Shown: positions 1-37,682 of the stretch, one piece after another
Numbering within the stretch: position 1 is the stretch's first letter
Layout of the letters: every line of letters starts with the position of its first letter
Source: a virus
Taxonomy: Duplodnaviria; Caudoviricetes
Virus record (IMG/VR): IMGVR_UViG_3300033072_001172
Location: 32,001-96,000 of that record
Strand: one strand, 5' to 3'
Length of the DNA stretch: 64,000 bases
The notes under the pieces: model-generated
The model's input: only the letters and a program-made list of their open reading frames with translations
The model's database searches: none
Told to the model about the DNA's origin: nothing
Program-made: the position numbers and the translations under genes

Positions 1-41
1 TGGTGTAGGCGGAAAGTAGAAGTAATCCGCGGGAGTCGGTT

Positions 42-1895
42 ATGTCGATGGGTCCTGGTTCTTCCAATGCCGGTGGTGCGCTCGGCGGTCTCGGTAACGA
101 TCCGCAGCTGCTCGACGCGTCACGTGCGTATCCGCACCAGTTTTTCTCGATCAGCGACAAGTACATCCCCAACACGATGAAGGAGCTGTTCCGTTGGGCG
201 ATGTACATCTACTCGACCAACGGGTCAGTCAACCAGACCATCCGAAAGATGGCGGGCTACGTGACTACGGAGCTCGTCTACAACGACGCCGACAGCAAGG
301 TCGTCGACAACTGGAAGAACATCTTCAAGATTGTCGAGTACACACGTTTTGAGAAGTTGATGCTGCTCGACTACTTCACGTACGGCAACGCGTTTGCCCG
401 GTTCATGTACCCGAAGCAGCGCATGCTGAAGTGCAAAAAGTGCTCGGCCGCGGAGCCCATTCACAATCTCTCGTACTCGTTTCGCAGCTTCAGATTTCAC
501 GCCAAGTGCCCGAAGTGCTCGTACGAAGGTCCGATGGACGCGTACGACCGTCCGACGCGCAATAAGTCCAGGTTCAAGCTGATCCGCATTGACCCGCGGT
601 ACATTCAGCCGATCTACGAGCCGGTCAGCGGCGAAACGGAGTTCCTGTACGCTGTGCCCCGCGCACTGGCGAACCGGATACGTGAGGGCTCCAAGAACAA
701 AGCTAGTATCCGTGTGATCCTGGAAAATGTTCCGCTGGAGGTGATCACGGCGGTGGAGAAGGGGCATTTGATCAAGTTCCCCAGCGACACCATCTATCAC
801 TTCAAATGGGATTCGATCAGCCGCGACGACAACTCGCTGGGCGAGATCCCGTTTCTCGCGGTCTTCAAGACGGTGTGGCTGTACAACACGCTGTGGCGCG
901 CCCAGGAGGCCGTCTCACTTGAACACGTGTTGCCCTGGCTGATGGTTTCGCCGGCGACAACTTCTGGCGGTGTCGATCCTATTGGCAACTTCAACATGGA
1001 AGGGTGGACGTCGTTCATGCGCGAAGCCATTCCGCGCTGGCGGCGTGACCCGAACTTCATCGCCATCGCGCCGTTTCCGGTTAACGCGGTGCAATTGCGC
1101 GGTGACGCCAAAGGTTTGGACAACTGGCAGGGTCTGCAGCATTTGCGTGAGACTATCGCCGGCGGCATGGGTATTCCGGAATCGTTCCTGTACGGTGGCG
1201 CCACGTACACCGGCCAGGCGGTTGAGCTGCGTGTGCTGGAAAACGAATTTCGAAACATCGTCAACCAGCTCGACACGTTCCTTACGGACTTCACGATACC
1301 GAAGATCATTCGGTACTTCCGGTACAAGCGCATCGACATCCATCATCAGCAGTTCAAGATGGCGGACGACGTGCAGCAACGTCAGATGCTGGTGACCCTG
1401 CACCAGTCCGGCATTGTGTCCGAGCAGACGGTCGCTTCCGAGTTCGGCCTGAACTACGCAATGGAGAAGGCGCAGATCGCCAAGGAGCTGGAAGAACGTG
1501 CCGCCCTGCAGCGAAACATCCAGCTGCGCGACGCAGAGGTTCAGGCGGAAATCCAGGTGATCATGGCCAAGGCCCAGACACGGGTGAACCAGATTCTCAC
1601 GTCGGGCGGAGCAACGGACGACAGCGAGACAGGCGACAAGAACGCGCCGTTCGGAAACCAGGGCCAGACCTTCATGACGAACCCGGACGTTCTTACCATG
1701 CAGGCCCAGAACTTCCTGCGCACCCGTTCGCCCATGGTGCGTGAGCAGGAGCTGGCGATGCTTGATCAGACGAACCCGACATACGCCAAGCGTATCCGCC
1801 AGGAAATGGAACGTGTGACTAAGTCGTCCACGAAACCGGCGGAGCTGCCTGTGCAACGTCCGCCGCGTGCGTCACCGGCACGGGCCCAGGTGTGA
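42..1895 (+). CDS. Portal protein with CxxC..CxxC zinc-ribbon insertion
   Basis: 617 aa; portal-like segments DYFTYGNAF, IYHFK, IAGGMGIPESFLYGG, GIVSEQTV; first gene of the structural block; GGAG upstream. Confidence 0.8.
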   Translation: MSMGPGSSNAGGALGGLGNDPQLLDASRAYPHQFFSISDKYIPNTMKELFRWAMYIYSTNGSVNQTIRKMAGYVTTELVYNDADSKVVDNWKNIFKIVEYTRFEKLMLLDYFTYGNAFARFMYPKQRMLKCKKCSAAEPIHNLSYSFRSFRFHAKCPKCSYEGPMDAYDRPTRNKSRFKLIRIDPRYIQPIYEPVSGETEFLYAVPRALANRIREGSKNKASIRVILENVPLEVITAVEKGHLIKFPSDTIYHFKWDSISRDDNSLGEIPFLAVFKTVWLYNTLWRAQEAVSLEHVLPWLMVSPATTSGGVDPIGNFNMEGWTSFMREAIPRWRRDPNFIAIAPFPVNAVQLRGDAKGLDNWQGLQHLRETIAGGMGIPESFLYGGATYTGQAVELRVLENEFRNIVNQLDTFLTDFTIPKIIRYFRYKRIDIHHQQFKMADDVQQRQMLVTLHQSGIVSEQTVASEFGLNYAMEKAQIAKELEERAALQRNIQLRDAEVQAEIQVIMAKAQTRVNQILTSGGATDDSETGDKNAPFGNQGQTFMTNPDVLTMQAQNFLRTRSPMVREQELAMLDQTNPTYAKRIRQEMERVTKSSTKPAELPVQRPPRASPARAQV

Positions 1896-1897
1896 TT

Positions 1898-2497
1898 ATG
1901 GCCGAGGATCGTTTCACCGAGCAGTTGTCCACAGCGCTGCCCGGCGCCAAGCCGAAAACACGGCCGCGCGGCCCGCAAACATCTGAGGCTGCGATCGAAC
2001 GGGCCCTGCGGGAGACAATGCCGGCCGCTGCCGGTGGCTCCGGTCGCCCGAGCCACCAGGTGTACGTCAACCCCCGATACAGCCTGCTGTTGCACACCGC
2101 ATGGACCAACAGCGATTCGCTGACCGGAACCAAACTGTTGTGGCAGTGGGAACGTGAGCGACGTCTCTACAATCTTGTGGCGTCACTGCACGGGACACGG
2201 TTCATGGTCGACGGGAACGATAGTCGTATGATTGTAGATAAGGACTCCAAGTTCACTGAGCAGGTGGTGAGCCTGGAGTTCATCGACTTGGCCGTGAAGT
2301 TGAAGCCAGCTGAGTTCATCACACGGGATCCGTTTGATCTGCTGGTCGAGTACGGTGTCGATTTGCCGCCGTACGTGGACCCGGAAAAACAGATCGCCGA
2401 GGTCAAGCAGGAAGTCAAGGCGATCAAAAAGACAGTGACCAGAAAAAGCGCGTCAAGATCACGTAAAAGGCCGGCCACCCGCGGCAAACGAACATGA
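1898..2497 (+). CDS. Hypothetical protein coupled to the RNAP gene
   Basis: About 200 aa with a basic C-terminal tail; its stop overlaps the RNAP start (ATGA at 2494-2497); start could be the GTG at 1892. Confidence 0.7.
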   Translation: MAEDRFTEQLSTALPGAKPKTRPRGPQTSEAAIERALRETMPAAAGGSGRPSHQVYVNPRYSLLLHTAWTNSDSLTGTKLLWQWERERRLYNLVASLHGTRFMVDGNDSRMIVDKDSKFTEQVVSLEFIDLAVKLKPAEFITRDPFDLLVEYGVDLPPYVDPEKQIAEVKQEVKAIKKTVTRKSASRSRKRPATRGKRT

Positions 2498-5400
2498 ACT
2501 ATCTTGAACGCTTCCAGCAGTACGCCGACAACATCAAGCGCCACACAGAGGCTATTTTCCCGATCGAGTCCCGGCGCAAACGGCTGGAAGTGTCGAATGT
2601 ACGGATCGAGGACGCCAGCGCCGAACGAGCACACAACTGGTCTGACTTTCAAAAGGCCAAGGAAAATGATCGCTCGTTCATGGGGCGCATCGTCGGCGAC
2701 GTCAAGCTGCTGGACAAAGCAACCGGTAACGTCCTGGAACACAAGAAGGGCTACACGCTGAACATGTTCCCGCATGTGACCGCGCTCGGGTCCTATGTGG
2801 TCAACGGGAAAGACCTGCAGGTGGTCAACCAGCTGCGCAGGCGCCCTGGCGCGTACCCGGTGATCACCGCCGACAACAACACCGTCACCAAGGTTACCGC
2901 GGCCGGGCTCAACCACGAAGCGATCCTTGACCGCGAAACCGGCCAGTTGCTGCTCAAGGTCAAGTCGAGCCACCTGAAGCTGGTGCCGCTGCTTCAGGAG
3001 TTGGGCGTCCCGCGTGCCGACCTGGAAAAGCACCTCGGTGCTGAGCTGGTCCAGAACAACCAGCCAAAAACCGGCGCCCGGTCTGAGTTGTTGCGTTTCT
3101 ACCAGCTGAACCGTCGCATTGCGCCGCCGGCCGAAGCCGCCGAACAACGCGACTCCATCATCAAGTACCTGGCGAGCAAGCGTGTTGACCCTGACGTAAC
3201 CCAGGACACGCTGGGCCACCGGCACGACCACGTGTCACCGTTGCTGTATCTGCATTCAGCGAAAGCCGCGGTTGATGTGGCCAAGGGCCACCGGCAACCG
3301 GCGGACATGGAATCCCTGGTGTACAAGTCCGTGCACTCCATTGAGGATTTCGTCGATGATTCGCTCAAAGAGGCCTACCCGCAGATGAAGCGCCGGTTGG
3401 CCTACATGATGGACCGTAAGAAGGATCTGAAGTCCTTCTTGAACGTGAACCAGCTCTCGCGCCCGATCATCAACAAGTTTGTCACGTCGGAGTTCACCCG
3501 TTTCTCGGATCAGTCGAACCCGATGGAGATTCTCGGGACCATGCACACCGTGACCAGCATGGGTGAGGGCGGCATTCAGTCGGAGCACGCGATCACGGAC
3601 GCGCTGCGCAACGTACACAACTCGCATTTTGGTTTCCTGGACCCTGTGCACACACCGGAAGGCCCGGGTATCGGCGTCATCGGCCATTTGGCCATGGGCG
3701 TGCGCAAAGTCGGAAACAAACTTGTGCGGGAAGTTTTCGACACGCACGAGAACAAGCTGGTGACGGCCAGCCCGGTCGAGATTGCCCGCGGAGGGATTGC
3801 GTTCGCGGATCAGTACAAAAAGAACCGCGCCGGTAAGATGGAGCCGATCGCGGCCAAAATCACTGCGATCACTCCGGATGGCAAGATCGATCAGGTGCAC
3901 CACTCGAAGATCCGGTACGTATTGCCCAACGCCACGGATGCCTTTTCGCTGATCACTAACGCCATTCCGTTCCTGCACGCCAACAGCGCTAACCGCATGT
4001 TGATGGCCGACCGTCACATGGAGCAGTCGGTGCCGCTCACCGAGCGTGAGGCGCCGCTGGTCCAGGCTGAACTGCACGGAACCGGCTACGACCAGCTGAT
4101 GGGGACAATCGCCGGTAAAGCTGCTGATGGACCGGGGCGGGTCAAGTCTGTGCGTGACGACCATCTTCAGGTCGTCTACGACAAAGACCCGAAGACCGTC
4201 CACAAGATTTTTTACTCTGACGCGTATCCGCTGAACGCCGGCACCGTGCTCAAGATGACGCCCGCCGTCAAACAGGGACAACGCCTGAAGAAGGGCATGA
4301 CCCTGCTGGACACCAACTTCACCAAGGATGGCGCCCTGGCGTTGGGGCGTCCGTTGGTGACGGCGCTGATGCCCTGGCGCGGTTACAGCTTTGAGGACGG
4401 TATCGTCATCAGCGAGGCGGCCGCACACAAGCTGGCCAGTGAACACCTCACAGAGCACAAGGCCGAAAAAGAGCCTGGTGTGCATGTCGGGTTCGACAAG
4501 TTGTACGCGGCGTACCCGGCGGAGCGCGAGAAGAGCACCACTCACCGGATGCCGAAAGTCGGTGACGTGGTCAAGCCCGGTCAGTTGCTCATTCCGGTTC
4601 TGCGGGAGGTCGGCATCAATCCGGACACGGACTATGCCAAGGTGCACAAGGCACTTCGGCAGCCGTACATGAACGCGTCCGTTTACTGGGATGGCGGGAC
4701 AGACGGCGTAGTCAAAAAGGTCATTCAGAACGCCGGCGTCGTCAAGGTGTACGTGGAGTCCAAAGAGCCCCTGGTGGTCGGTGACAAGCTCAGCAGTCGC
4801 GCCGGATCCAAGGGCATCGTCACGCACATCATACCGATGGACCAGATGCCACGTACCAAAGACGGGCAGCCCATCGACGTGCTGTTCAACCCCTACGGCG
4901 TGCCCGGGCGCGTGAATCCGACGTTTCTCTTTGAGAACGCAGCCAGCAAGATTGCGCGCAAGACCGGCAAGCCTTATCTGTTTCCGGCGTTCGACACCAC
5001 GAACAGTGTTGCAGAACGCCTGCAGAAAGATCTCAAGCAGCACGGTCTCTCCGACACGGAGACTGTGGTTGACCCGACGCATAACGAAGAGCACAAGAAC
5101 GTCATGGTCGGGGAGAACTACTGGCTGAAACTCCGTCATCAAGTGAAGAAGAAATGGGCGGCGCGCTCGCATGAAGGGCCGTACACCGTGGACGAGCGTC
5201 CTGTCCGTGGCGGCCACGAATCCGCCCAGGGCATCGGCCCTCTGGATCTCTACGCCTTGTTGTCCAACGGCTACACCAACTTCCTGCACGATGTGTCGGG
5301 CATAAAATCCACGAAGAACACAGACTACTGGGCCGCTTTCCAGCTTGGAGTGCCCACACCGCCGCCGAAGCGGCCGTTCATCCTGGACAAGTTCGAAACG

Positions 5401-8400
5401 TACCTGCAGGGTGCCGGTATCAACGTGCAACGGCAAGGCGACACGTTGAAGGCAAGTCCGTTTACGGACAAGGATATCAAGCAGCGCTCTAACGGTGCGA
5501 TCACGGCGCCGCAAGTGTTCCGTGTCGGTAAGTCCGGGCTGCTGCCTGAACGTGGCGGCTTGTTTGACCCGGAAACAACGGGCGGTCATGGCGGCACACA
5601 CTGGAACCACATTGAGCTGGCGGAACGCGTGCTGAACCCGTTGTACGAACAACCGGTGAAAGCCATTACAGGCATGGCCATGAAGGATCTTGAGGCCATT
5701 CTGGAAGGCCGGAAGCTCGTCGACAACAGGACGGGCGGCGAAGCTATTGCGCACATACTCGGCAAGATCGATGTCAAACAGGAGTTGAAGGACACCAGCG
5801 CCGCCCTGAAGGATGCGCCGGCGTCCAAGCGCGACGGCATGTTGCGAAAACTGCGGTACCTGGCTGCTCTGGATAAACTGGGGATGTCGCCGGTTGAGGC
5901 CTACACCAACAAGACGATTCCTGTGATCCCGGCAAAGTACCGGCCGGTGTACGATCTCCCCGACGGCTCGCTCAACGTCAGCGACGTCAACCACGGGTAT
6001 CGTGAAGTTCTCATGATCAACCGTGAGCTGGAAAAGCTCAAGCAGCAGGGCGTGTCCCACGAGCACCTGGCCGGTCTGCGCGAGGGTCTCTACAAGGCGT
6101 ACTCAGGCCTTGTCGGCCTGACTGAGCCCGTGACCCGTTCCGGACACTTCAAAGGATTCATCAGCCAGATCGCCGGTAATCAGAACAAACACGGCCTGTA
6201 CCAGGCCAAGGTTGTCATGCGCCGCCAGGATCTTTCCGGGCGGTCAGCCATCATCAACGGGCCGCATCTCGGCATGGACGAGGTCGGCATTCCGGAGCGC
6301 ATGGCGCGTGACCTGTACAAACCGTATCTGGTGCGGTCCCTGGTAAACCTGGCCGGTCTCAAGCCGGCGGACGCACGCAAAGAAGTCGAGACAGGGTCGG
6401 CGCGAGTGAACTCGTTGCTGGACTCGGAGATGAAACAGCGACCCGTGCTGCTGAACCGTGCACCGGCCCTGCACAAGTTTTCCGAAGTAGCGCTCATTCC
6501 GCATCGCGTGCCCGGTGACGCCATTCATCTGAATCCACTGGTGTTCGGTGGCCTCAACGCCGATGTGGACGGCGACGCGTGCTTCAATTACACGTTTCTA
6601 GCCGTACCACCGTACTTGACTAAACACGAATCTCTTGCAGAATGGGTCCTTCATCATCAGGTGGAAGGGCCTATGGCGGCAAGAATTCGAGAGTCAGTAG
6701 CCTACCTTGACAAAAACGACACCTTGGTCGTCTGTGACCTTGAGGACTTCCCACGCAGCGAGATTGTGGGCCGCAAGGATCACCGCACTTTCTTCTCGGT
6801 GCCACCAGGCATCCGGGCGATCGCAATCGACGAGAAGACCGGTACGATGGTCGCCGCCCCGGTTCAATACTGGTCACGCCACGAAAACATCCAGGTTGAG
6901 ATCGTTACCCTGACCAGTGGCAAACAGATCATCAGCGACGATGATGAACGTGCCGTTTACGGGGTTGACTCTTCGTCGCTTCAATGGTGCCGTCGCAGAC
7001 CGACTGAGGCCAAGAACCAGCTTGTTCCGGTACTGAGCAATTTGCCTGTCGATCGCTCAGTGGTTATGGCCGTGAACTGGCGGGACCAGACCGAAGGCCG
7101 AAAGCTGGACCTGAGCACGAAGCTGGAGTTGACGAGCAAGGCTGGTTACTTTGTCGGTGCGCACATCGGCGATGGATGGGCTACGAGTAGCAGACCGAAC
7201 GGCACCCCAAACCAAGTACATCTCGCTTCTATCTACCCTGAAGTCACGGAAGCTTGGGTAGCTGCTGCGGCGACACTGTTCGTTGACGGTGAGCGCCCTC
7301 ACATGCATTCCGTCGATGTTTACGGCGGCAAGCTTGGTAGCAATCCTGATGGGGCAACGACACGACACACGATCAGCCATACTGGTTTGGCCTCGAAGAT
7401 GCGTGTACTTGTCGGCCATGGTGCCGCCAACAAGCATCTTCCGCCGTTCTTCTTCCGGGCTCCGGACGAGTTCCTGCTTGGCATGTTGGCCGGGCTGTGG
7501 GACACCGACGGCACTGCGTACTGGAGCAACAGCAAGAAGAAGCCGCAGTTCGCGTTCACCTACCAGTCGAATAGCTTGCGGCTGGTCAGAGAAATCAAAA
7601 TCGTGATGCTCCTGCTGGGAGTAGAGACACACATCGTTGCGACGAAAACACCAAAGGGGGAACCCACTTGGGTTCTTCAGACGTCCCTTCCGTCTCTGCA
7701 CAAGGCGGGGCTGGATCTGCCACTGAAGCACCAGGCCAAGTTGCGGGCTTTCCGTGAGTTCATGGACGGACCGGCCCCCGCGACCAAGAACAGCTACAGT
7801 CAAAAACGCCTCGTTCCGTTGCCGCAGGCATTGTCCGAAGAACTGGCCAAGTTCTTTTCAAACGGCAGCCGCGGGCAGAAAATGGCCAGCGAGTACGTCG
7901 TATTGCGGCGTGATGGTAAGCGCGGGCACATGACCAAAGAAACTGCCCGCAAGGTTATCGAGGTGGTGGGGGACCGTTGCAACCACCCTCTCTACCCACG
8001 CTGGCGCGAGCTGGTTGAGGCCGAGCATTATCACTTTGAGGCAGTTACCAAGGTCGAGGTAACGGACATTCCGGAAACGGGCTACGATCTTACGGTGCCC
8101 GGCCACGAAACTTTCCTGTCACTCGATGGTGTCGTGCTCTCGAATACCGTCGGTGTTCACATACCGCACTCGGAACTGGCGCGCGAGGAGTTGTTGAAGA
8201 ATCTGCCGAGCCGCAACATCATGTCGCCGAAATCGGGCGACGTGCAGCACAGCGTCGGCAAAGAGGCCACGCTCGGGCTGTACATGATGACCACGCCGCA
8301 TCGCAATCAGGAAACAGTCTCGGTCAAGAGTCCGGGCGAGGCCGTTGAGAAATACCAGCAGAAAAAGATTCAGCTCAACACTCCGCTGCATGTCGCGGGG

Positions 8401-10056
8401 CGTGACGGTACCTGGACGGTCGGGCACTTCCTGCTCAACGCGGAGCTTCCCGAACAGTACAAGCTGAAGAAGCCGATGGCGGTCGGAGGCAAGCAGTATA
8501 AATCGCTGATCAACAGCCTGGTGGCGTCGCACCCGGACCAGGCCGGCCGCGTCATTTCGCGCATGAAGGACCTCGGGTTCGATGCCGTGACCCGCCTGGG
8601 TTTCTCTGTGAATCTGAAAAGCCTGACTGAGAACAACGCGGAGCGCGACCGCGTCGCCAAAGAAGTCGAGCAGATCATGAAGACGGATCCCGAGGGCGCG
8701 GTGCGTCACGCCGAGAAGCGCCTGGAGGAGATCCTGGACAAGCACGTAACTGAGGAGAATCCGTTCGCGCTCATGTCGTACAAATCCGGAGCGTCGAACA
8801 AACACCGAATCAATGTCCGTCAGCTGATCCTGGCTCCGGGCGGTGTCACCGACCTGAAGGGCCGCATCGTGCCCATTCCGCTGATGCGCTCGTACGCTGA
8901 CGGTCTCACGCTGCCGCAGTATTGGGCGACCATGCCCGGCGCCCGCAAAGGCATCGCGGACCGTGCCGTGTCCACCCAGGATACCGGCGCGTTCAACAAG
9001 GAACTGGTCAACACCACAATCGGAGTGCGTGTGACCGACAAGGACTGCGGCACCAAACACGGTATTTCGCTGCCCGCCGACCACCCGGATTTGCCCGGGC
9101 GCTGGATCGCTTCGGGCGCGCATGCCGGACAGTTGATCACGTCGGATCTTGCTGTGCAGCTGCGGAAAGAAGGTAAGCCGGTCATGGTGCGGTCTCCCAT
9201 GACGTGTGCGCTCGTGGAGGGAGTGTGCCAGCACTGTGCCGGCCTCAATGAGGCGAGTCGTCCGCACCCGATCGGTTTTCACATCGGCGCCTATGCCGGA
9301 ACAACCATCACAGAACCGATCACGCAGATGGTGTTGCGCGCGTTCCACAGTCAGGGCGCGGTTGGCGCCGGCGAAGTCGGTTACAAGCGCATCCGTCAGA
9401 TTTTCACAATGCCGCAGAACATTCGCGGCAAGGCCACACTGGCCAAAGACACCGGTCAGGTGTCCGAAGTAATCACGACGGACCGCGGCGGCTGGGATGT
9501 CGTGGTCAACGGGATAAAGCACTTTGTTCCTAACGAACTTGGCCTGGCAGTTAAGGTCGGCGATCACGTCAAGCAGGGCGATCAGCTGTCCAACCACGGT
9601 GTGCTGAAGATCCAGGAGGTCGCGGAGTTGCGCGGGCATGAAGCCGCACGCGACCAGTTGATCAAGGACCTGGACTCGGAGATGAGCGCGGCCGGCCAGA
9701 ACATTCGACGTCGCATCTATGAAGTGGCCATGCGCCCGCTGATCAACCGTGTAGAAGTGCTTGACCCGGGTGACGCGGCGCGGCAAGGTGTTGTGGCCGG
9801 CGACGTGCTGAACGTAAACTACGTCAAGCAGTTGAACGAGAAACTGAAGACGCCGATCGAGTTCAAGCCCATCGTGATGTCGATCAAGGATGTTCCGTTC
9901 GTCGGGGAGGACTTCGTCGGCCCGTTGATGTACCAGCGGCTGCCGCGCACGTTGAGGGAGGCGCCGGCCGTTGGCGGAGTAACACACCTCAAGGGCGAAA
10001 AGGCTCACCCGATTGTTGAGTACGCCTGGGGTAACCTAGGCGACCAGAAGAAATGA
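2494..10056 (+). CDS. rpoBC: Single-chain fused beta-beta' DNA-directed RNA polymerase (intein-containing)
   Basis: beta motifs HTPEGPGIG, NRMLM, GYSFEDGIVIS, GDKLSSRAGSKG, KLRHQV; beta' motifs GGLFD, LLNRAPALHK, NADVDGD, bridge helix GARKGIADRAVST, trigger loop EPITQMVLRAFH; fusion junction near 5430-5445. Confidence 0.97.
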   Translation: MNYLERFQQYADNIKRHTEAIFPIESRRKRLEVSNVRIEDASAERAHNWSDFQKAKENDRSFMGRIVGDVKLLDKATGNVLEHKKGYTLNMFPHVTALGSYVVNGKDLQVVNQLRRRPGAYPVITADNNTVTKVTAAGLNHEAILDRETGQLLLKVKSSHLKLVPLLQELGVPRADLEKHLGAELVQNNQPKTGARSELLRFYQLNRRIAPPAEAAEQRDSIIKYLASKRVDPDVTQDTLGHRHDHVSPLLYLHSAKAAVDVAKGHRQPADMESLVYKSVHSIEDFVDDSLKEAYPQMKRRLAYMMDRKKDLKSFLNVNQLSRPIINKFVTSEFTRFSDQSNPMEILGTMHTVTSMGEGGIQSEHAITDALRNVHNSHFGFLDPVHTPEGPGIGVIGHLAMGVRKVGNKLVREVFDTHENKLVTASPVEIARGGIAFADQYKKNRAGKMEPIAAKITAITPDGKIDQVHHSKIRYVLPNATDAFSLITNAIPFLHANSANRMLMADRHMEQSVPLTEREAPLVQAELHGTGYDQLMGTIAGKAADGPGRVKSVRDDHLQVVYDKDPKTVHKIFYSDAYPLNAGTVLKMTPAVKQGQRLKKGMTLLDTNFTKDGALALGRPLVTALMPWRGYSFEDGIVISEAAAHKLASEHLTEHKAEKEPGVHVGFDKLYAAYPAEREKSTTHRMPKVGDVVKPGQLLIPVLREVGINPDTDYAKVHKALRQPYMNASVYWDGGTDGVVKKVIQNAGVVKVYVESKEPLVVGDKLSSRAGSKGIVTHIIPMDQMPRTKDGQPIDVLFNPYGVPGRVNPTFLFENAASKIARKTGKPYLFPAFDTTNSVAERLQKDLKQHGLSDTETVVDPTHNEEHKNVMVGENYWLKLRHQVKKKWAARSHEGPYTVDERPVRGGHESAQGIGPLDLYALLSNGYTNFLHDVSGIKSTKNTDYWAAFQLGVPTPPPKRPFILDKFETYLQGAGINVQRQGDTLKASPFTDKDIKQRSNGAITAPQVFRVGKSGLLPERGGLFDPETTGGHGGTHWNHIELAERVLNPLYEQPVKAITGMAMKDLEAILEGRKLVDNRTGGEAIAHILGKIDVKQELKDTSAALKDAPASKRDGMLRKLRYLAALDKLGMSPVEAYTNKTIPVIPAKYRPVYDLPDGSLNVSDVNHGYREVLMINRELEKLKQQGVSHEHLAGLREGLYKAYSGLVGLTEPVTRSGHFKGFISQIAGNQNKHGLYQAKVVMRRQDLSGRSAIINGPHLGMDEVGIPERMARDLYKPYLVRSLVNLAGLKPADARKEVETGSARVNSLLDSEMKQRPVLLNRAPALHKFSEVALIPHRVPGDAIHLNPLVFGGLNADVDGDACFNYTFLAVPPYLTKHESLAEWVLHHQVEGPMAARIRESVAYLDKNDTLVVCDLEDFPRSEIVGRKDHRTFFSVPPGIRAIAIDEKTGTMVAAPVQYWSRHENIQVEIVTLTSGKQIISDDDERAVYGVDSSSLQWCRRRPTEAKNQLVPVLSNLPVDRSVVMAVNWRDQTEGRKLDLSTKLELTSKAGYFVGAHIGDGWATSSRPNGTPNQVHLASIYPEVTEAWVAAAATLFVDGERPHMHSVDVYGGKLGSNPDGATTRHTISHTGLASKMRVLVGHGAANKHLPPFFFRAPDEFLLGMLAGLWDTDGTAYWSNSKKKPQFAFTYQSNSLRLVREIKIVMLLLGVETHIVATKTPKGEPTWVLQTSLPSLHKAGLDLPLKHQAKLRAFREFMDGPAPATKNSYSQKRLVPLPQALSEELAKFFSNGSRGQKMASEYVVLRRDGKRGHMTKETARKVIEVVGDRCNHPLYPRWRELVEAEHYHFEAVTKVEVTDIPETGYDLTVPGHETFLSLDGVVLSNTVGVHIPHSELAREELLKNLPSRNIMSPKSGDVQHSVGKEATLGLYMMTTPHRNQETVSVKSPGEAVEKYQQKKIQLNTPLHVAGRDGTWTVGHFLLNAELPEQYKLKKPMAVGGKQYKSLINSLVASHPDQAGRVISRMKDLGFDAVTRLGFSVNLKSLTENNAERDRVAKEVEQIMKTDPEGAVRHAEKRLEEILDKHVTEENPFALMSYKSGASNKHRINVRQLILAPGGVTDLKGRIVPIPLMRSYADGLTLPQYWATMPGARKGIADRAVSTQDTGAFNKELVNTTIGVRVTDKDCGTKHGISLPADHPDLPGRWIASGAHAGQLITSDLAVQLRKEGKPVMVRSPMTCALVEGVCQHCAGLNEASRPHPIGFHIGAYAGTTITEPITQMVLRAFHSQGAVGAGEVGYKRIRQIFTMPQNIRGKATLAKDTGQVSEVITTDRGGWDVVVNGIKHFVPNELGLAVKVGDHVKQGDQLSNHGVLKIQEVAELRGHEAARDQLIKDLDSEMSAAGQNIRRRIYEVAMRPLINRVEVLDPGDAARQGVVAGDVLNVNYVKQLNEKLKTPIEFKPIVMSIKDVPFVGEDFVGPLMYQRLPRTLREAPAVGGVTHLKGEKAHPIVEYAWGNLGDQKK
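6577..8145 (+). mobile_element. Intein with LAGLIDADG homing endonuclease inside the RNAP active-site loop
   Basis: Removing 6577-8145 restores NADVDGD-TVGVHIP (cf. NADFDGD-QMAVHVP); ends GYDLTVPGHETF..VVLSN/T; LAGLIDADG-like helices FVGAHIGDG and LAGLWDTDG; first residue is Ala (6577) or Cys (6580). Confidence 0.93.
6616..6675 (+). promoter_or_regulatory. Possible sigma70-like promoter, RBS and in-frame ATG inside the RNAP intein
   Basis: TTGACT (6616)-N16-CAGAAT (6638), GGAAGG (6663), in-frame ATG (6673), in a locally AT-richer patch. Confidence 0.3.
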
Positions 10057-11189
10057 AAGACACCGTAAACAAGAACGTTTCCCGCGCCGACGGACACTTC
10101 GTCGGCTTCGTTCTTGCGTACGATGTTGACCGGCAAACGTATCGTGTACGCCTCACCGACAGCAATCGGCAACCTGTTCAGTGTCCGGCGCTGGACACCG
10201 GTGCCGACAGTCCGTACGCCGTCGGTGACCGTGTCGCTGTGCATCACTACCATGACTACGGTTTTGTGGTGGTTGGGCGCCTGCCCGTGCCGCTGTCTCA
10301 GCTGCCGTTAACACCACAAGAACCGAACGACACCACGCCCGTCTCCATAAAATCAGGTGATGCCCTGTCCTACCGGGACGTCCTGGACAAGGAAGCCTCC
10401 CTGTACGCCGAGGCCGGCGACATGTCTGTGCGGCGCGGGGCGTCCAGATTCTTCCTCAGCAAGACTGGTGCTCTGCTGATGCAGGTCGCGGTGACGTGCT
10501 CACGTTACATGTCCAAAACGCTGTCGACGATCAAGGACATCTGCTACACCTACATCTTGTCGCAACCTGGTGTCACCGCGGTCAGCCGTGTGGATATGGA
10601 CCAGACAAGCCCCTCCGTGGGGCAGCCCCAGATGTCGCTGGAAGTCGTGCCGAAGGATACCGCCAACACGATTACTGGACGTCTTGGCGGCGGTGTGCTT
10701 GACAGCGGCGACGACGGGCTATCATTGGCGATGGGCCAGCTGGTCAAGCTGATGCTCAAGTTGACTAAGGCAAACCCGCTGCTTGAGTACACGCACGGCG
10801 ATGGGCGAACCAAGGTGCAAATTGATCTTCAGCAGTTCTTGCTGCAGTTCGGCCAGGCCCAGTTCGTGTGGAATGCCACCGGGCTGACCATCACCCAGGG
10901 AGCATCCCGCCTGGCGCTTACTGCCGCCGACATCCTTGAGATTGTGTCTTCAGGCCTTACCATTTTGCTGAGTGGTAATGTGGACGTGCAGGCCGCGGGG
11001 TTGAATGTGAACGCGCCAGCGGTGTTCGTGACCCCTGTGAAGATTCAGGGATTTGACGCGTTGACCGTATACAACACGTTGAACTCACTGATTCTGGCTT
11101 TCAACGCCCACATCCATCAGGTGGGTCCGATCCCGTCAAGTCCGCCGGCTGGCGCCGGTGCTGTGCTGCCGGTGATACCGACCCCGTAA
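10053..11189 (+). CDS. Baseplate central spike (gpV/gp5-like)
   Basis: N-terminal OB-fold-like segment (YRVRL..VGDRVAV..VVVGRL), beta-strand repeats, C-terminal FNAHIH (HxH) apex motif followed by SSPP. Confidence 0.7.
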   Translation: MKDTVNKNVSRADGHFVGFVLAYDVDRQTYRVRLTDSNRQPVQCPALDTGADSPYAVGDRVAVHHYHDYGFVVVGRLPVPLSQLPLTPQEPNDTTPVSIKSGDALSYRDVLDKEASLYAEAGDMSVRRGASRFFLSKTGALLMQVAVTCSRYMSKTLSTIKDICYTYILSQPGVTAVSRVDMDQTSPSVGQPQMSLEVVPKDTANTITGRLGGGVLDSGDDGLSLAMGQLVKLMLKLTKANPLLEYTHGDGRTKVQIDLQQFLLQFGQAQFVWNATGLTITQGASRLALTAADILEIVSSGLTILLSGNVDVQAAGLNVNAPAVFVTPVKIQGFDALTVYNTLNSLILAFNAHIHQVGPIPSSPPAGAGAVLPVIPTP

Positions 11190-11202
11190 CGAGGATTGAC
11201 CC

Positions 11203-13290
11203 ATGGCGTCATCGACGTTCTACGCGAAACGGCCCGCCCCCCAAACGTACACCACGAAGGTGGCCGACGTGCGCCTGCCGTACGATGGCACGAAATGGCA
11301 GGAGGAGATCATCGGTGCGCTGCACGAACAGCACCCGTACCTGCCGAACACACAACTGCAGCTGTCGATGAACGTTCGCAACGTCAAGCAGGGCTACGCG
11401 ATCGGCAACCTCAACGTGTCCGACCGGGTTCGGATTCCGGTGATTATCGATCAGTTCCTGCTGAAGCCGTTCGACATGTTTCTCAAGGACGGCCAGTTGC
11501 ATCCGCTGAACAAGAGCACGCTTCTGGCCGCGTTGGAGGCTCGCAATTTCGGGACGGCAACACCCCCTGGTCAAGGTGAGTCGTCGGACGTGTTTCTCAC
11601 GAACTCTCGCCCGCCGTATGACGGCAAGTACACGTTCGCTTCTGCCCAGGACAAACATGCTTTTTTGGGCATGTTCAACAAGCGGAAAGACCAGGCGGGA
11701 GCGGGCGGCCGCGACCCTTTCCATGTTGATATCAAACAGCTCGCCGCCACAGACCACGGCATGGACGACCGGCTTGTCCAGAAGTTGCTCAGTTCACCTG
11801 GTGGGCGTATTTACTTGCAGATGATGCTGAGCGGTCAGGTTTCGCCGCCAAAGAAAGAGAAGGCGCACGGCAAGCTGGGAGCCTGGACCGAAGGCAAGCC
11901 GGAAGAAGTTGAGAAGGCGCTGACGAACGTGTTCGGCGCTGACGGTGCCGAATACTACATGGCGGGCGACCCCGCGGTGAAGGAAGTACTGGAGAACGCC
12001 AGAAAGGGTGACTTCTCCAAGATGAAGCACCACGGCTCCGTGCGCAAAATGCTTGAAACCAACGCGCAGCGCAAGATCGCCATGGTCAAGCAGTCTGCTG
12101 TGCATTTGCCGGATCAGCCGACTGACGAGCTGGTTGCCGGCACCGTCAAGGTCGCCAACGCGGGCGGCGCGCTGGTCGGTGGTCTGTTGTTCGACCGTGT
12201 GTACGACCTGGCGTTCGGTACGCGCAACGACGCCCTGTTCTTTGTCGAACCGGACGTTGGCTTCGACAACAACCGCGTGTTCTACGGGCAACAGTCAATC
12301 AAACAGGCGGAGCTCAAGGAGTTCAGGAAGAACTTCCAGAACATCGAACCGAACGTCGGGGACACCGGTGTCTGGTTCTGGTTCGAGGGGGACAAGCTGG
12401 CCTGTACCTCGGTGGCGCGAATCGTCGACCGCCAGCAGCACAGCCAGACCTATTTCGTGCGTGGCGGTGGCTCCGTCAAGCTGAGCCACTCAGTGGTCAC
12501 CAAAAACGACCTGGTGGCCGCCGGCGCCCCGGAAGGCGACACGCTGGTGGTGCCTGGCACCGCTCTCTGGTTGCCGGTCCCCCAGAAGCGTGCCATGTAC
12601 GGGCGCCCGGCCACGAATTTCACCCGGGATTACCTGCTGGTGCAGGAGGCACACGGCAATGTCAAAGTGTCCGTGTACCAGAACAACATGCGGCATGTCA
12701 TGCACGACGCCATGCTGCCCTCGCAGGCCGAAAAGTGGCTCCACAACTATTACGAGCCGGAGTCAGTTCAGACGATCATGACGGCCGCGCGCAACAACGG
12801 CACCGTCAAGATCGCGGCGCACCCCGGCATGTTCGTCACGGAGACCAAGACGGCCACGATCGACCTGGACACGATGCTGACTCGCATCCGTGAACAGGCC
12901 AAAGTCGCCGCGGACGCCTTGTTCGTGGTGAAGGACGCTGACTTCGGTCCTCTGACCAACTACGACACGACGGCGCTCGGCAAGGTGGACCCGATGGCGG
13001 CAGCGATCGTCAAAGCCGCGACCGACATCGAAGACGACGAGCGCGCCCGCAGTGTTGACAACGTGCTGGGCTTGAACATCATCAACGACCAGAACATCCA
13101 GAGATTCCTTGACGGCATCGACGGCCTGGACCGGTGCAAACAGTTCTGCATGAAATTGTTGCTGGCGGCGCGACTTGGTCTTAACATCGACGCGAACGCG
13201 GCACGCACGGCTGCCTTCGCCCTGGAGTCGATCATTCAGGATCTGGAGCAGCTGCGGCACGCAACCATGTCGGCCTCTGACGGTGAGTAG
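11203..13290 (+). CDS. Hypothetical virion/head protein (695 aa), K-x-A rich
   Basis: GAGGA RBS; coding-like codon bias; KIA, KVA, KQA, KTA, KAA motifs. Confidence 0.75.
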   Translation: MASSTFYAKRPAPQTYTTKVADVRLPYDGTKWQEEIIGALHEQHPYLPNTQLQLSMNVRNVKQGYAIGNLNVSDRVRIPVIIDQFLLKPFDMFLKDGQLHPLNKSTLLAALEARNFGTATPPGQGESSDVFLTNSRPPYDGKYTFASAQDKHAFLGMFNKRKDQAGAGGRDPFHVDIKQLAATDHGMDDRLVQKLLSSPGGRIYLQMMLSGQVSPPKKEKAHGKLGAWTEGKPEEVEKALTNVFGADGAEYYMAGDPAVKEVLENARKGDFSKMKHHGSVRKMLETNAQRKIAMVKQSAVHLPDQPTDELVAGTVKVANAGGALVGGLLFDRVYDLAFGTRNDALFFVEPDVGFDNNRVFYGQQSIKQAELKEFRKNFQNIEPNVGDTGVWFWFEGDKLACTSVARIVDRQQHSQTYFVRGGGSVKLSHSVVTKNDLVAAGAPEGDTLVVPGTALWLPVPQKRAMYGRPATNFTRDYLLVQEAHGNVKVSVYQNNMRHVMHDAMLPSQAEKWLHNYYEPESVQTIMTAARNNGTVKIAAHPGMFVTETKTATIDLDTMLTRIREQAKVAADALFVVKDADFGPLTNYDTTALGKVDPMAAAIVKAATDIEDDERARSVDNVLGLNIINDQNIQRFLDGIDGLDRCKQFCMKLLLAARLGLNIDANAARTAAFALESIIQDLEQLRHATMSASDGE

Positions 13291-13292
13291 CC

Positions 13293-13649
13293 ATGTCGAA
13301 CGCCATTGCCAAAGTAAAACGTGTGTCAGTACGGCGACGGCTTGAAAACGTCAGACGTGATCCGAACAGCACGTTCTTCGGTAAGAACGTAAAGGTCGCC
13401 AACGTTCTCAGGTTGAGGGAAGCATTGTCCTCGGAGAACCTTCGCGAGATCGTTGCTCATCTTCTTAATGTCCGTCCGGCGAACGTATCGAGTGCTGTCG
13501 CCCAGCTGACACTTGACCAGTTGTCGAAGTTGCGGGAACTGGTCCAGAAGGTCAGCCGGCAACTGCATCGGGAAGTTGCTCGCCAACGGTGGGAAGCGAC
13601 AATGTCTCCGCCGAAGAAGGCACCGTCCAATGCCGCTCAGTCGGTCTGA
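13293..13649 (+). CDS. Small basic hypothetical protein
   Basis: 118-aa ORF filling the operon gap. Confidence 0.6.
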   Translation: MSNAIAKVKRVSVRRRLENVRRDPNSTFFGKNVKVANVLRLREALSSENLREIVAHLLNVRPANVSSAVAQLTLDQLSKLRELVQKVSRQLHREVARQRWEATMSPPKKAPSNAAQSV

Positions 13650-14712
13650 ACTGGCCGCTAAGTACGCGCTATCCGAGCAAACGCTCGTTCAGCTTGAGGA
13701 GCTGGACGACAGCCCGTTGATTGACGGTTCCAATCAGAAAACAGTCCGTGGACGCATCGTCTACGAAGTAACACCGGAACTTGATCGCTGGCTGCGGGTT
13801 GGCCGCACGCAGTTCACCCAGTTCCGTGGCCGGCTGATGCCGTGTCAGCGCGCCATTTTCAGCGCACTGATCGCAGAGGCCGACGTAACACGGGCCTACT
13901 CGTCCTTGCGTGAGCGCGGGGTCATTCCGCCGTTCATGAACGCGAACTTGATCGGCGTGTACTGGCAGGAACTTTTGCGCCTGGCGCCACCGGAATGCTT
14001 GCCCTTTCTTACCGGCCAGCAGCAGGAGCCTGATGACCTCAGCAGGTTGATGATGCAGCAGCTGGGCATTCTGGATGCGTTCGAGGATCCGGAGCGTCTG
14101 GCGGAGAAGTTTTACTGGCTGAACACACCTGATCTTCGCGTGCTCACAGACGCGTTTCTGGCCGTGCAGTCGGACACCCAAACCTTGAAGAAGTACCTGT
14201 CGGATGCGCATCGTTTCGATGTGACGGATGCGAGTATCCGCGAGTATCGCCGGTACTTTTTCGACATCGCCGTTTGCGGCATGGAGGGCGCCGCGGCCTT
14301 TGCCGACCTGGCAGCGTCACCACAATACCGGAGCGTGGTCGGTAACGCTTTGCGCGATGGCACCCTGGGCTCCGTGGTGTCCGAGCTGAAACTGAGCTCG
14401 TTGATCGACCATCGAATTTCGTTGGAGGCCGCCCTCACACGCAGCCGCGCGTTTGTGGCGACCAACCCGAGCAAAAGCGCCGGAGTACAGGCGCAGGTCG
14501 GCGCGTTCAAGGCCATGCAGGACCTGTACTACACCGTACACACGCTTGAGCACGCCAAGGACAAGGATGAGGGGACAAGCGACGCCGCGATGATGGAAAT
14601 CCTGAAGCTGAAGCACAACCAGACCGTCAACGAGAATCAGCTGTCGATTAACGACATTCCAAAAGAGGCACGCGATGCCATTGTCACTGGTCCGGTCAAA
14701 GCCAGATCATAA
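13630..14712 (+). CDS. Hypothetical protein, candidate terminase small subunit
   Basis: ATG 13630 (MPLSRS) follows GAAGG; helical; directly upstream of and overlapping TerL; function inferred from position only. Confidence 0.5.
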   Translation: MPLSRSELAAKYALSEQTLVQLEELDDSPLIDGSNQKTVRGRIVYEVTPELDRWLRVGRTQFTQFRGRLMPCQRAIFSALIAEADVTRAYSSLRERGVIPPFMNANLIGVYWQELLRLAPPECLPFLTGQQQEPDDLSRLMMQQLGILDAFEDPERLAEKFYWLNTPDLRVLTDAFLAVQSDTQTLKKYLSDAHRFDVTDASIREYRRYFFDIAVCGMEGAAAFADLAASPQYRSVVGNALRDGTLGSVVSELKLSSLIDHRISLEAALTRSRAFVATNPSKSAGVQAQVGAFKAMQDLYYTVHTLEHAKDKDEGTSDAAMMEILKLKHNQTVNENQLSINDIPKEARDAIVTGPVKARS

Positions 14713-16309
14713 TGACGAAGCCGCCGTCATTGCCAGCTATACCGACGCGTTTCGGAATCTGATTTACGTTCAACGCGATAAACGCTTCGACGTCGACAGC
14801 CGTCAGTATCTCCCGGTACTGCTTGAGTCGTCGGCACCTGAGTTCACGCTCAAGTGTGGACGCCAGGTAGGCAAGACACAAACCATCTGCGGAATTTTAG
14901 GCCTGCACGGCGCCACGACGCCAGGCTACGCCCACATGTACATCACGCCGCGAGGCGATCAGGCCAAGGACGTGTCACGTAATAAGTTTTCGACGATGAT
15001 GCGCGACTCACCCTTTCTGCACAAGTTCGTGCCCGGTCAGCGTTCACGTGATGAGTCGTGGCAGCTGGGCATGAAGATGCTGAAGAACGGCGCTCATTTC
15101 TATTTCATGTCCGCGTACCACACAGCGGACGCCATCCGCGGGCGTTCGGCCGGCTACCTGGTAAAGGACGAAATCCAGGACTTGATCGCCGACCACATGG
15201 CGCCGATTGACGAGTGCGCAGCCAACTTTCCTGACGCCAGGTTCTTTAACTGCGGTACCCCCAAGACATTTCAGAATCTTCTGGAACAAAAATGGCAGCG
15301 CTCCACCCAGGCGGAATGGCTGGTCAAGTGCGCCGCGTGCGGTCATTGGAACTTCCAGGATCACAAGATCCTCGGCAAGAAGCACTACGTGTGCGTGAAA
15401 TGTGGCGGGCAGATCCGCATCGAGAACGGTCAGTGGGTCATGGGCAACCCGGATCGTTTTTCGGTTCATCAGGGTTTTCGGATCTCCCAGTTCATGAACC
15501 CGAACACACGCTACTGGCGTCTGATTGAGAAGCTGGAGACATACCCGTTTGCCCAGTTCTGTAACGAAGTTCTCGGGATCAGCTATGCGGAAGGCGATGT
15601 CGTTCTCACCAGGGACGACATTCTGAACGCGTGCGATGACAATACGCCGATGTTGCGTCGGGTCCCGACAAGATTCGGCATCGTTGTGCATGGCGGGGTT
15701 GACCACGGTACCGGTAACATGGCGGCCAAACGGGCCCGCGGTCTCACACAGGCCTCGTTCACTGTGGTTGCTACCGGCGGGTTTGACAGTGAAGGACGTT
15801 TTCGCGTGTTGTCGTTGCAACGACTGACCGGATCGGATTCTGATCTGTCGGCCCAGCCGGCTGTCATCAATAACATCCTGCGCAAGATGAACTGTCGCTT
15901 CGTGATCTCTGACTGGGGGTTTGGTGCGCCAAATAACCGCCGGCTCATCAACGAATTCGCCTGGGACCCGTCGCGGTTTTTTGAGATCCAGGAGTCGGAC
16001 TCATTGGGCAAGTTTGTGGCGTGGAACGACGCCGCCGGACGGTACATCGTCAATCGCAGCGAGATGTTCATGAAGGTCATTGACGACATCAAAAATCGGC
16101 GCATCGTGTTTCCGCGGCGCCAGGACATGGAGCCGTTCATTCAGGACTTCACGTCGATTTACGTCGAGCTCGACGCCGACCACAACAAACGCCGGTACGA
16201 TCACACCAACCCGGATGACGCCTTCCACGCGGTGGCCTTTGCGTATCTGGCCGCGTTAATGGACGCCGGGCTGCTGAGCAGATTCAATCTGGTACCGGAT
16301 GTGACTTGA
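14675..16309 (+). CDS. terL: Terminase large subunit
   Basis: Walker A KCGRQVGKT, IRGRS, Walker B LVKDEIQD, GTPK coupling motif, CAAC..CVKC zinc finger, nuclease GGVDHG and DDAFHA. Confidence 0.93.
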   Translation: MPLSLVRSKPDHNDEAAVIASYTDAFRNLIYVQRDKRFDVDSRQYLPVLLESSAPEFTLKCGRQVGKTQTICGILGLHGATTPGYAHMYITPRGDQAKDVSRNKFSTMMRDSPFLHKFVPGQRSRDESWQLGMKMLKNGAHFYFMSAYHTADAIRGRSAGYLVKDEIQDLIADHMAPIDECAANFPDARFFNCGTPKTFQNLLEQKWQRSTQAEWLVKCAACGHWNFQDHKILGKKHYVCVKCGGQIRIENGQWVMGNPDRFSVHQGFRISQFMNPNTRYWRLIEKLETYPFAQFCNEVLGISYAEGDVVLTRDDILNACDDNTPMLRRVPTRFGIVVHGGVDHGTGNMAAKRARGLTQASFTVVATGGFDSEGRFRVLSLQRLTGSDSDLSAQPAVINNILRKMNCRFVISDWGFGAPNNRRLINEFAWDPSRFFEIQESDSLGKFVAWNDAAGRYIVNRSEMFMKVIDDIKNRRIVFPRRQDMEPFIQDFTSIYVELDADHNKRRYDHTNPDDAFHAVAFAYLAALMDAGLLSRFNLVPDVT

Positions 16310-16347
16310 AAGTAAGGGCCCGGTGTAGATTATTTAGGCTGACGACC

Positions 16348-36117: not shown

Positions 36118-36891
36118 ATGGGAACGAACTTTCTGAACTGGTCATGGTCGACGCAGCACGTGCAGACCGAAGTGACCAACTCGGAATACCTGTCCGGCGA
36201 ACACACGCTGCTGATGGCGGGCCCGCCGCGGCTCAGCCAGCTGCCTGTTGGCAACAACGGTGTGGCCGCGGATGCGCTCAACCAAATCTCCGACGGCTCG
36301 AATTCATTGTTCCCGATCGGCCTGGTGGCGAACTTCGCCATGCAGCAGGGACGCAGCATCCGTGACCTGTTCGAAATCGGCTCGGTGCGTCGTTACCTGA
36401 TCGCCGAGAAGATCCAGAGCACGGTGCGCCTGGCGCGTGTCAAGTTCTACGGCCCCAGCCTGCTGCGCGTTCTCTACGCGTACTACCCGTCATCCCGGTT
36501 GCCGGGCAGCGGTTCCTTCGCGTCAGCGCTCAAGGACAGTGACGTCGACGCCCAGAATCTCACACTGCCGACCGCCAACGGCGACGGTGTCCCTGGCTAC
36601 GGCGACAGCAACTCGGATGAGGTCGGCGCCAACTTCGGCCAGGCCCAGGACAGTGGCCGAAACAACCGCGACTTCTGGATCAACCTGCAGTCGGTCATCT
36701 TCCGTCAGCCGCTGGGGCTCGGCCTGTACTTCAAGGCCAACAACAACCGCCCCTACGGCGCCTGCTACCTGGAAGAGATGCTGTTGGGGTCGCACACCAT
36801 CAGCATCGACGCCGACCAGATTGTCATGCAGGAAGGCGTCGACGGCAAGTTTGACCGGATCGTCCCCATCAAGATCGCGATGGCTGCCTAA
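36118..36891 (+). CDS. Tail tube protein
   Basis: Follows the sheath; IGLVANFAMQQGR..LFEIGS motif; YLEE..SH..SIDA. Confidence 0.8.
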   Translation: MGTNFLNWSWSTQHVQTEVTNSEYLSGEHTLLMAGPPRLSQLPVGNNGVAADALNQISDGSNSLFPIGLVANFAMQQGRSIRDLFEIGSVRRYLIAEKIQSTVRLARVKFYGPSLLRVLYAYYPSSRLPGSGSFASALKDSDVDAQNLTLPTANGDGVPGYGDSNSDEVGANFGQAQDSGRNNRDFWINLQSVIFRQPLGLGLYFKANNNRPYGACYLEEMLLGSHTISIDADQIVMQEGVDGKFDRIVPIKIAMAA

Positions 36892-37682
36892 CGCACCCGC
36901 CGGCGCGAATTGAGCATTTCCACAACCGAGAAGGACGACATGCTTCCCTGCGTGTCGTCCTTCTCATGCAACCGGGCCATTTCGTTGCGTCGCAGATGGG
37001 CCCACATCTTCTTCAGAGCGTGGTTTTCGATTTGGCGCACGCGCTCTGTGGACAGCCCAAGCATGTTGGCCATGTCACTGTAGGTGAGCTCAGTGCCGTG
37101 GAAACCGTACCGGTTCTGAATGATGTAGCGTTCCTTCTTCGTGAGGATCGTGGAGACGGCGGCCATCATCTCCGTGATGACTGTCTTTCGGTGAAGTTCC
37201 TCATTGATCTCGTCGCCGTCGACCTCGTGCTCCTTGTCGAAGTCCTCAATGAACGACAACATCGTGATGTTGATCTTGACGTCCCGGGAGCGTTCCAGCG
37301 TCCGGATCGGCTTGACCGAGTTCTTGTCGAACACCAGGGCACGTCGAATGCTTTCCTTGATATGCCACATCGCATAGGTGCTGAACTTGTTGCCGCGGGA
37401 AAGATCGAATGCGGCGATCGCCCGGCACAGCCCCATGCTGCCCTCGCTCAGCGCAGACTGCAGAATGTCAACCTTGTCCGACGACACCGAGTTGTGATTT
37501 CGAACCATGCGCGAGGCTTCTTTGATCACCAGCGGCATGTTCCGCCAGACCAGTTCCTTGCGCGCTTCCGTGTCGCCGGCCTTGGCGCGGCGCAGTAGAT
37601 CCCGCTCCTCTTCTGCCGTAGGGATCGTGATGCCCTTCATGGTTTTGAACAGGTACGACATTTCGTCGTCGAGCTCGGTCAT
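36888..37682 (-). CDS. Sigma70-family RNA polymerase sigma factor
   Basis: Region 1.2/2 (AEEERDL..ARKELVWRNMPLV..EGSMGL..FDLSRGNKFSTYAMWHI), region 4 HTH (LSTERVRQIENHALKK); region 3 short or absent. Confidence 0.93.
   Translation of the reverse strand: MTELDDEMSYLFKTMKGITIPTAEEERDLLRRAKAGDTEARKELVWRNMPLVIKEASRMVRNHNSVSSDKVDILQSALSEGSMGLCRAIAAFDLSRGNKFSTYAMWHIKESIRRALVFDKNSVKPIRTLERSRDVKINITMLSFIEDFDKEHEVDGDEINEELHRKTVITEMMAAVSTILTKKERYIIQNRYGFHGTELTYSDMANMLGLSTERVRQIENHALKKMWAHLRRNEMARLHEKDDTQGSMSSFSVVEMLNSRRRVR

Follow-up and report, generated by a model that had tools for sequence, protein, structure and literature searches.

A phage gene coding for the beta and the beta′ subunit of a bacterial-type RNA polymerase (RNAP) in one chain was analysed in a window of 64,000 nucleotides (nt), which corresponds to positions 32001-96000 (G000:C1:32001-96000) of the 133,897-bp IMG/VR virus record IMGVR_UViG_3300033072_001172, estimated to be 69% complete. 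The gene is a single open reading frame (ORF) at window positions 2494-10056 on the plus strand (2520 amino acids, aa) and genuinely belongs to a very large family of phages that has been described in part. On balance, we favour the reading that it encodes a complete and catalytically competent bacterial-type RNAP core on one polypeptide, which would be spliced from an intein-bearing precursor, depend on phage sigma factors, function without phage-encoded alpha and omega subunits, be made with the virion proteins and be packaged in the virion for early transcription.

The beta-beta′ chain and its relatives

Pfam profiles locate the beta domains Rpb2_3 (aa 337-401) and Rpb2_6 (aa 580-906) in the first part of the ORF, followed by the beta′ domains Rpb1_1, Rpb1_2, Rpb1_3 and Rpb1_5, with LAGLIDADG_3 between Rpb1_2 and Rpb1_3. 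The nearest solved relatives are bacterial (Thermus beta, E 1e-72; Thermus beta′, E 5e-55), and there is remote homology to PHROG families annotated as 'RNA polymerase beta subunit' (E 1e-14 to 1e-26). The gene is composed of the following parts, all on the plus strand:

2494..5445: RNAP beta module, aa 1-984 (Pfam Rpb2_3 and Rpb2_6; the Thermus beta match)
5419..5460: beta/beta′ joint, aa 976-989, INVQRQ-GD-TLKASP, modelled as a beta-hairpin (Salmonella alignment, AlphaFold model)
5446..6576: beta′ N-terminal part, aa 985-1361, with the clamp helices and without the zinc ribbon (PDB beta′ matches, E 1e-38)
6556-6576: catalytic NADVDGD, aa 1355-1361, within the beta′ N-terminal part
6577..8145: LAGLIDADG intein of 523 aa, aa 1362-1884 (LAGLIDADG_3, weak Intein_splicing; exact gap relative to empty-site homologues)
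8146..10056: beta′ C-terminal part, aa 1885-2520 plus stop, with bridge helix, trigger loop and second zinc site (Pfam Rpb1_3 and Rpb1_5; the Thermus beta′ match)

An earlier note on this DNA had proposed that beta is fused to beta′ through a very short linker, and the sequence bears this out: aa 973 is the start of GAGINVQ, beta runs to about aa 984 (RQGDT) and LKASPF follows. Residue numbers of Escherichia coli were assigned via Salmonella rpoB/rpoC (L011), aligned with the excised protein and 43 intein-free relatives. At the joint, GINVQRQGDT corresponds to GINIELEDE of the RpoB C-terminus and LKASP to IALASP of the RpoC N-terminus; relative to Salmonella RpoB and RpoC, the chain has lost no more here than the final residue of beta and residues 1-17 of beta′. 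In an AlphaFold model of aa 560-1361, with a mean predicted local distance difference test score (pLDDT) of 86.3, a hairpin is formed by the final strand of beta (aa 976-981) and the opening strand of beta′ (aa 984-989), in a block with pLDDT values of 89-95, and the joint is thus confidently modelled as the two-residue turn of a beta-hairpin. A Foldseek search with the same model returned bacterial beta chains with a probability of 1.0.

Natural rpoB-rpoC fusions occur in Helicobacter and Wolbachia, and beta-beta′ tethers have been engineered in E. coli. These proteins likewise connect the beta C-terminus to the beta′ N-terminus in one functional chain, which indicates that the joint is structurally permissive. 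They differ in that the full-length subunits, a linker, alpha2 and omega are kept, whereas in the phage chain the termini are trimmed to a hairpin turn and the whole falls ∼750 aa short of E. coli beta and beta′ taken together.

The reduction in length is spread over both subunits. The beta segments absent relative to Salmonella are 1-31, 225-354 (SI1), 934-1045 (SI2) and parts of 1126-1189. In beta′, the absent segments are the zinc ribbon (64-88), 126-150, three short loops, 950-1152 (SI3) and the tail (1374-1407). The N-terminal zinc ribbon of beta′ (C70, C72, C85 and C88) is missing from the query and from each of the 43 relatives, and no phage-specific insert of 12 aa or more was found in the alignment of the excised chain to Salmonella. 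Nearly everything beyond the conserved core thus appears to have been stripped from the phage chain. What is left includes the parts expected of an active enzyme: D1357, D1359, D1361, K765, K773, H882, R2282 and H2285 align to E. coli D460, D462, D464, K1065, K1073, H1237, R933 and H936, respectively, and most of these catalytic positions are invariant in the 43 relatives, the exceptions being H882 (conserved in 39) and R2282 (in 23). The bridge helix, R933 and H936 of the trigger loop and the four cysteines of the second zinc site are retained. The excised protein contains only four cysteines in all, each of them in this second zinc site.

A query that spans the joint (aa 860-1110) matched at least 596 clusters (at 50% identity) with E≤1e-30, and the best 150 of the 596 match across the joint in a single stretch. 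Intein-free full-length relatives measure 1,987-2,109 aa and are found on contigs of up to about 200 kb. Megablast of the sequence against phages gave no match, and a search of viral contigs for related loci with the RNAP protein alone did not find relatives. The closest known systems are Salmonella phage Arash (gp206 plus gp216, with the sigma factors gp10 and gp196; OQ632216, PMC10585845) and the Vibrio phages D69, D148 and D181. Arash gp206 and D69 0261 align across the beta/beta′ joint, and in both types of phage the RNAP gene comes after a portal gene and a small ORF. Further similarities are the single RNAP set, the lack of alpha and omega, two sigma70-family factors (of which one is orthologous in the two systems; see below) and a genome of ∼180-190 kb. 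The two types differ in sequence (27-29% identity) and in gene structure: in Arash and D69, beta is fused to the N-terminal part of beta′ (1525 aa) and the C-terminal part is encoded separately, with other genes or a homing endonuclease in between, whereas the chain of the present phage is continuous but intein-bearing. In a tree rooted with Salmonella, Arash and D69 are sister to all fully fused forms.

Cell-like beta and beta′ genes of metagenomic Caudovirales have been described as the mReC lineage, a deep clade distinct from cells (Weinheimer & Aylward 2020, PMC7481178). These are large tailed phages from IMG/VR and metagenomes with subunits recognisable by COG0085 and COG0086, and the present record is such an IMG/VR contig. 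The clade analysed here appears to be this published lineage. The mReC paper does not describe beta-beta′ fusion, portal linkage, inteins, sigma factors or virion association; 'fused' and 'fusion' are used there only of crAssphage, and its text contains none of the words 'sigma', 'intein' and 'virion' (PMC7481178).

The portal-to-terminase array and the virion

The RNAP gene is part of a tight array of co-directional genes. The members that matter here are listed below, all on the plus strand:

42..1895: portal homologue, 617 aa, first gene of the array (tblastn to Arash gp204 'portal protein', 27% identity, E 1e-66)
1892..2497: protein of 201 aa, with 4-nt overlaps with the portal stop and the RNAP start (from the sequence)
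10053..11189: protein of 378 aa, directly downstream (ATGA overlap with the RNAP stop)
14675..16309: large terminase subunit (PHROG 675, E 2.7e-55; homologous to Arash gp1)

From the RNAP region the array runs gapless to the terminase, and the RNAP gene is indeed embedded in this array, much as had been noticed before. The accompanying claim that the gene is ATGA-coupled between a portal-adjacent gene and the baseplate spike holds for the coupling (overlaps at 2494-2497 and 10053-10056) and for the portal, but the spike label is not demonstrable: the 378-aa protein has only weak gp5/gpV-like matches in the Atlas, with template modelling (TM) scores <0.5, and its predicted fold has a pLDDT of 41. 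Four close homologues of this protein were found. The 201-aa protein has a sole homologue, in the close relative L005 (50% identity), and an Atlas search with it returned nothing; its slot is filled in all relatives by a small gene of variable length (92-218 aa). The portal homologue, the 201-aa and 378-aa proteins and other neighbours gave no match in PHROG and Pfam. No tRNA genes were found in the window.

The position of the RNAP gene next to the portal gene is conserved. In tblastn searches, the 617-aa portal homologue also matches the gene upstream of the RNAP in D69, L005, L007 and L008. The order portal, small gene, RNAP is the same in L005, L007, L008, Arash and D69, and the linkage between portal and RNAP holds from 78% down to 27% portal identity. 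For Arash, mass-spectrometric spectra are available for virions purified on sucrose gradients: gp206 yielded the most spectra (3516, above the major capsid protein), gp216 yielded 1210 and the sigma factor gp10 yielded 467 (PMC10585845). Two explanations were offered by the authors, namely that these proteins act in early transcription or that abundant proteins were carried over (PMC10585845).

The sequence of events that we favour would be as follows. Excision of the intein after the third catalytic Asp would yield the 1997-aa enzyme, which would work with the phage sigma factors (the gp10-like one of 240 aa and one of 264 aa) and without phage-encoded alpha or omega. Given that the gene lies within the portal-to-terminase array and that its translation is coupled to that of the adjacent genes, the RNAP is probably synthesised together with the virion proteins. 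As the Arash data and the synteny suggest, the RNAP and a sigma factor would be packed in the particle, delivered with the DNA and transcribe the early genes, with an A-tract, a spacer of ∼15 nt and GGCATAAGA as the likely promoters. Newly made enzyme would serve later transcription too, since each genome has only one set of RNAP genes. The support for these functional steps is indirect and comes from the conserved position beside the portal gene, the Arash virion data and the single RNAP set; virion packaging and independence from alpha are both plausible.

The same gene could instead encode a polymerase that is made and used within the infected cell for middle or late genes, while host RNAP reads the early genes and the Arash signal reflects carry-over. 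The Arash virions were purified just by sucrose gradient and pelleting, and the preparation contained 116 proteins, among them clearly non-structural enzymes such as ribonucleotide reductase, ligases and primase (PMC10585845), in keeping with the carry-over named by the authors. At the N-terminus of the phage chain, which is shorter than that of the bacterial proteins, no capsid-targeting extension, targeting peptide or protease motif is evident, and the promoter and terminator scans (see below) carry no timing information. However, early synthesis would be expected of a polymerase that serves middle or late genes, not synthesis from an ATGA-coupled gene inside the portal-terminase array; the linkage to the portal has been conserved over a very deep divergence; and gp206 was not a minor component of the Arash preparation but headed it, over the major capsid protein. 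We therefore regard a polymerase confined to the infected cell as rather unlikely.

Sigma factors, host subunits and candidate promoters

The lack of alpha and omega genes, noted before for the window, extends to the whole record: at E≤1, profile searches for alpha (PF01000, PF01193) and omega (PF01192) matched nothing in the record or in two complete relatives, Arash and D69, whereas all 14 of 14 control genomes scored. Two sigma70-family factors were found:

36888..37682, minus strand: sigma70-family factor, 264 aa, regions 2 and 4 (Sigma70_r4 46 bits, Sigma70_r2 33 bits, both over the cut-off)
G000:C1:128044-128766 (L010:12045-12767), outside the window: second sigma factor P0121, 240 aa (Arash gp10 orthologue, E 5e-20)

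The 264-aa factor is weakly similar to Arash gp196 and D69 0246 and is likely to be a partner of the phage RNAP. In P0121 only Sigma70_r3 scores over the Pfam cut-off, and a family profile matches regions 2-4 of RpoS and SigA at E 1e-14. The longest contig recorded for the sigma factor P0124, which belongs to the P0121 family, has the same length as that recorded for the RNAP P0003, 180,494 bp. With two sigma70-family factors encoded by the phage, the enzyme is therefore most likely sigma-dependent and not a stand-alone polymerase.

Multisubunit RNAPs of the phiKZ and AR9 type (review PMC7598289) are remotely homologous to the present enzyme and resemble it in lacking alpha and omega, and theirs are packaged for early transcription. 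They consist of four or five highly diverged polypeptides, operate without a sigma70-family factor and are complemented by a second, non-virion set. The enzyme studied here is, by contrast, a single chain close to the bacterial enzymes, is the only set of its phage and is accompanied by two sigma genes.

An enzyme that is bacterial-type throughout might also be a hybrid, in which assembly of the fused chain still takes place on an alpha dimer of the host and perhaps involves host omega. A missing gene does not mean a missing partner, as the phage need not encode alpha itself, and in the alignment most of the sequence on either side of the known alpha-contact areas is kept. Several findings make such a hybrid improbable. 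The hosts of the relatives are as different as Salmonella and Vibrio and the family comprises at least 596 clusters, while a fixed dependence on host alpha would constrain the host range; a packaged enzyme would need host alpha to be packaged as well; and phage multisubunit RNAPs without alpha exist in phiKZ and AR9. In bacterial RNAP, as seen in Thermus structures, omega wraps the C-terminal tail of beta′. This tail is deleted from the phage chain.

Candidate promoters were sought in the sequence. Scans for sigma70-type promoters and for terminators over positions 1-17000 gave no more hits than shuffled sequence. The motif GGCATAAGA is present in 10 copies in the record, all on the minus strand, compared with 0 for a control pattern. 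The copies lie at G000:C1 1744, 6479, 9300, 15865, 25435, 28392, 93180 (window 61180), 104506, 107821 and 115327. At least four of them are found ∼25-30 nt upstream of a ribosome-binding site and ATG, with an A-rich tract ∼15 nt upstream of the motif. The same 9-mer occurs upstream of minus-strand genes in L005 (at 2558) and in L007 (at 5333); the RNAP of L007 is only 42% identical. The exact motif is not enriched in Arash or D69. We consider GGCATAAGA a candidate promoter for the phage sigma factor and RNAP, and as a lead it speaks for a sigma factor specific to the phage.

The intein and the overall reading

The intein-free allele of the RNAP is represented by P0002, an empty-site homologue of 1993 aa that is 81% identical and reads NADVDGD|TVGVH. 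As this sequence marks the insertion, the element comprises aa 1362-1884 and starts with an Ala; the excised enzyme would be 1997 aa long, close to the ∼2000 aa first estimated. Cys1363 as residue 1 was rejected, because other family members have canonical inteins at this site that open with Cys or Ser directly after DGD, and the register of block A, like the empty-site allele, points to Ala1362.

The element departs from canonical inteins at several positions. Residue 2 is Cys, and the element ends with VVLSN followed by Thr+1, so that the penultimate residue is Ser and not His. Block B reads SDDD instead of TxxH (TDDD in most of the related group), with Asp at the position of the His. Block F is GYDLTVPG, and LAGLIDADG_3 is matched at E 5e-9. 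A search of the PDB with the intein sequence gave no match. The features of class 1 that are kept are the C-terminal Asn with Thr+1, Hint blocks F and G and the LAGLIDADG endonuclease; those that are lacking are a Cys, Ser or Thr at position 1 and TxxH in block B. Class 3 inteins are defined by a WCT triplet, i.e. Trp at B12, Cys at F4 and Thr at G5 (PMC2807308). The element shares with them the non-nucleophilic start and Thr+1, but carries Arg, Asp and Leu at B12, F4 and G5, respectively, and class 3 was rejected for want of the triplet. With class 2 it has in common the non-nucleophilic start and Asp at F4, but class 2 has Cys+1 and TxxH in block B where Thr+1 and SDDD are found here. By the definitions of PMC2807308, the element belongs neither to class 2 nor to class 3, and it may represent a splicing type outside classes 1-3.

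Eleven related elements occupy the same site, with an average identity of 37%. Ten of the eleven start with A, Q, D, M or N, the exception being P0065, which starts with Cys. The group has Asp in place of the block B His, Asp at position 4 of block F and a terminal SN that precedes Thr. The forty invariant positions include W99, H102, D121, D123, R125, DLTVP of block F and the terminal SN, and there is no invariant Cys among the 11 members. More generally, large inserts are present in 43 of 120 family proteins, at seven recurrent sites (about 390, 618, 766, 802, 1035, 1362 and 1760 in the numbering of the excised protein). All of these coincide with highly conserved motifs: TPEG, the positions immediately following K1065 and D464, and the interior of the trigger loop. 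Inserts are most frequent after D464, and most of the insert-bearing proteins score intein and homing-endonuclease Pfam domains; the maximum is three inserts per protein, for example in P0008 (3285 aa). Inteins also occur in other genes of these phages. A second one (Hom_end_hint, LAGLIDADG_3, Hint) lies at window 21157-23889 within a protein of 910 aa, the flanks of which have homologues in Arash (gp222, annotated only as 'structural protein') and D69 (a 'hypothetical protein'), and the terminase of the close relative L005 is likewise intein-bearing.

Since the intein lacks a nucleophile at position 1 and the His of block B, splicing is not assured. The least probable of the alternatives that we consider is that it does not splice, leaving an inactive or regulated precursor or undergoing C-terminal cleavage only, for which the required terminal Asn and Thr+1 are retained and which would give beta-beta′N-intein plus beta′C in mimicry of the split in Arash; the Ala at position 1, SDDD for TxxH, Ser for the penultimate His and the absent WCT triplet speak for this reading, but 40 invariant splicing-block positions across eleven elements averaging 37% identity point to selection for function, each element sits right after a catalytic Asp in the sole RNAP gene, where a retained 523-aa domain should be disruptive, and the Arash split is at a different site, 85 aa further downstream. 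A correspondence of the beta′ split of Arash and D69 with the intein site was likewise rejected on this distance (∼85 aa).

Returning to the spliced, sigma-dependent and packaged enzyme that we favour, a number of points weigh against it. The residues of the clamp helices that bind sigma70 in E. coli are substituted in the phage chain, R275 by Ile and E295 by Leu, and family-wide these positions are V, I or L and mostly Leu, respectively. Arash is only 27-29% identical and has a split beta′, and its virion preparation leaves room for carry-over. To these are added the lack of a visible capsid-targeting extension, the fact that host alpha could still be recruited, and the missing position-1 nucleophile and block B His of the intein. 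The most far-reaching form of the proposal is a two-protein machine, in which the 1997-aa RNAP, free of alpha and omega and matured by an intein outside classes 1-3, is packaged and injected with the 240-aa sigma factor and acts independently of host RNAP; in this full form we put it forward only tentatively.

To our knowledge, no member of the family has been studied biochemically, and the fused form is not described in the literature searched. What the present window adds is a continuous, unsplit chain and an unusual intein at the catalytic loop. If the proposal is true, the enzyme would be the smallest known bacterial-type RNAP, one chain of ∼2000 aa with a small sigma factor and no assembly platform, and would lend itself as a model to work on how multisubunit RNAPs are built, how they evolve and how they can be engineered. 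Next to N4/crAss and phiKZ, it would moreover exemplify a third way in which a packaged polymerase makes early transcription independent of the host.

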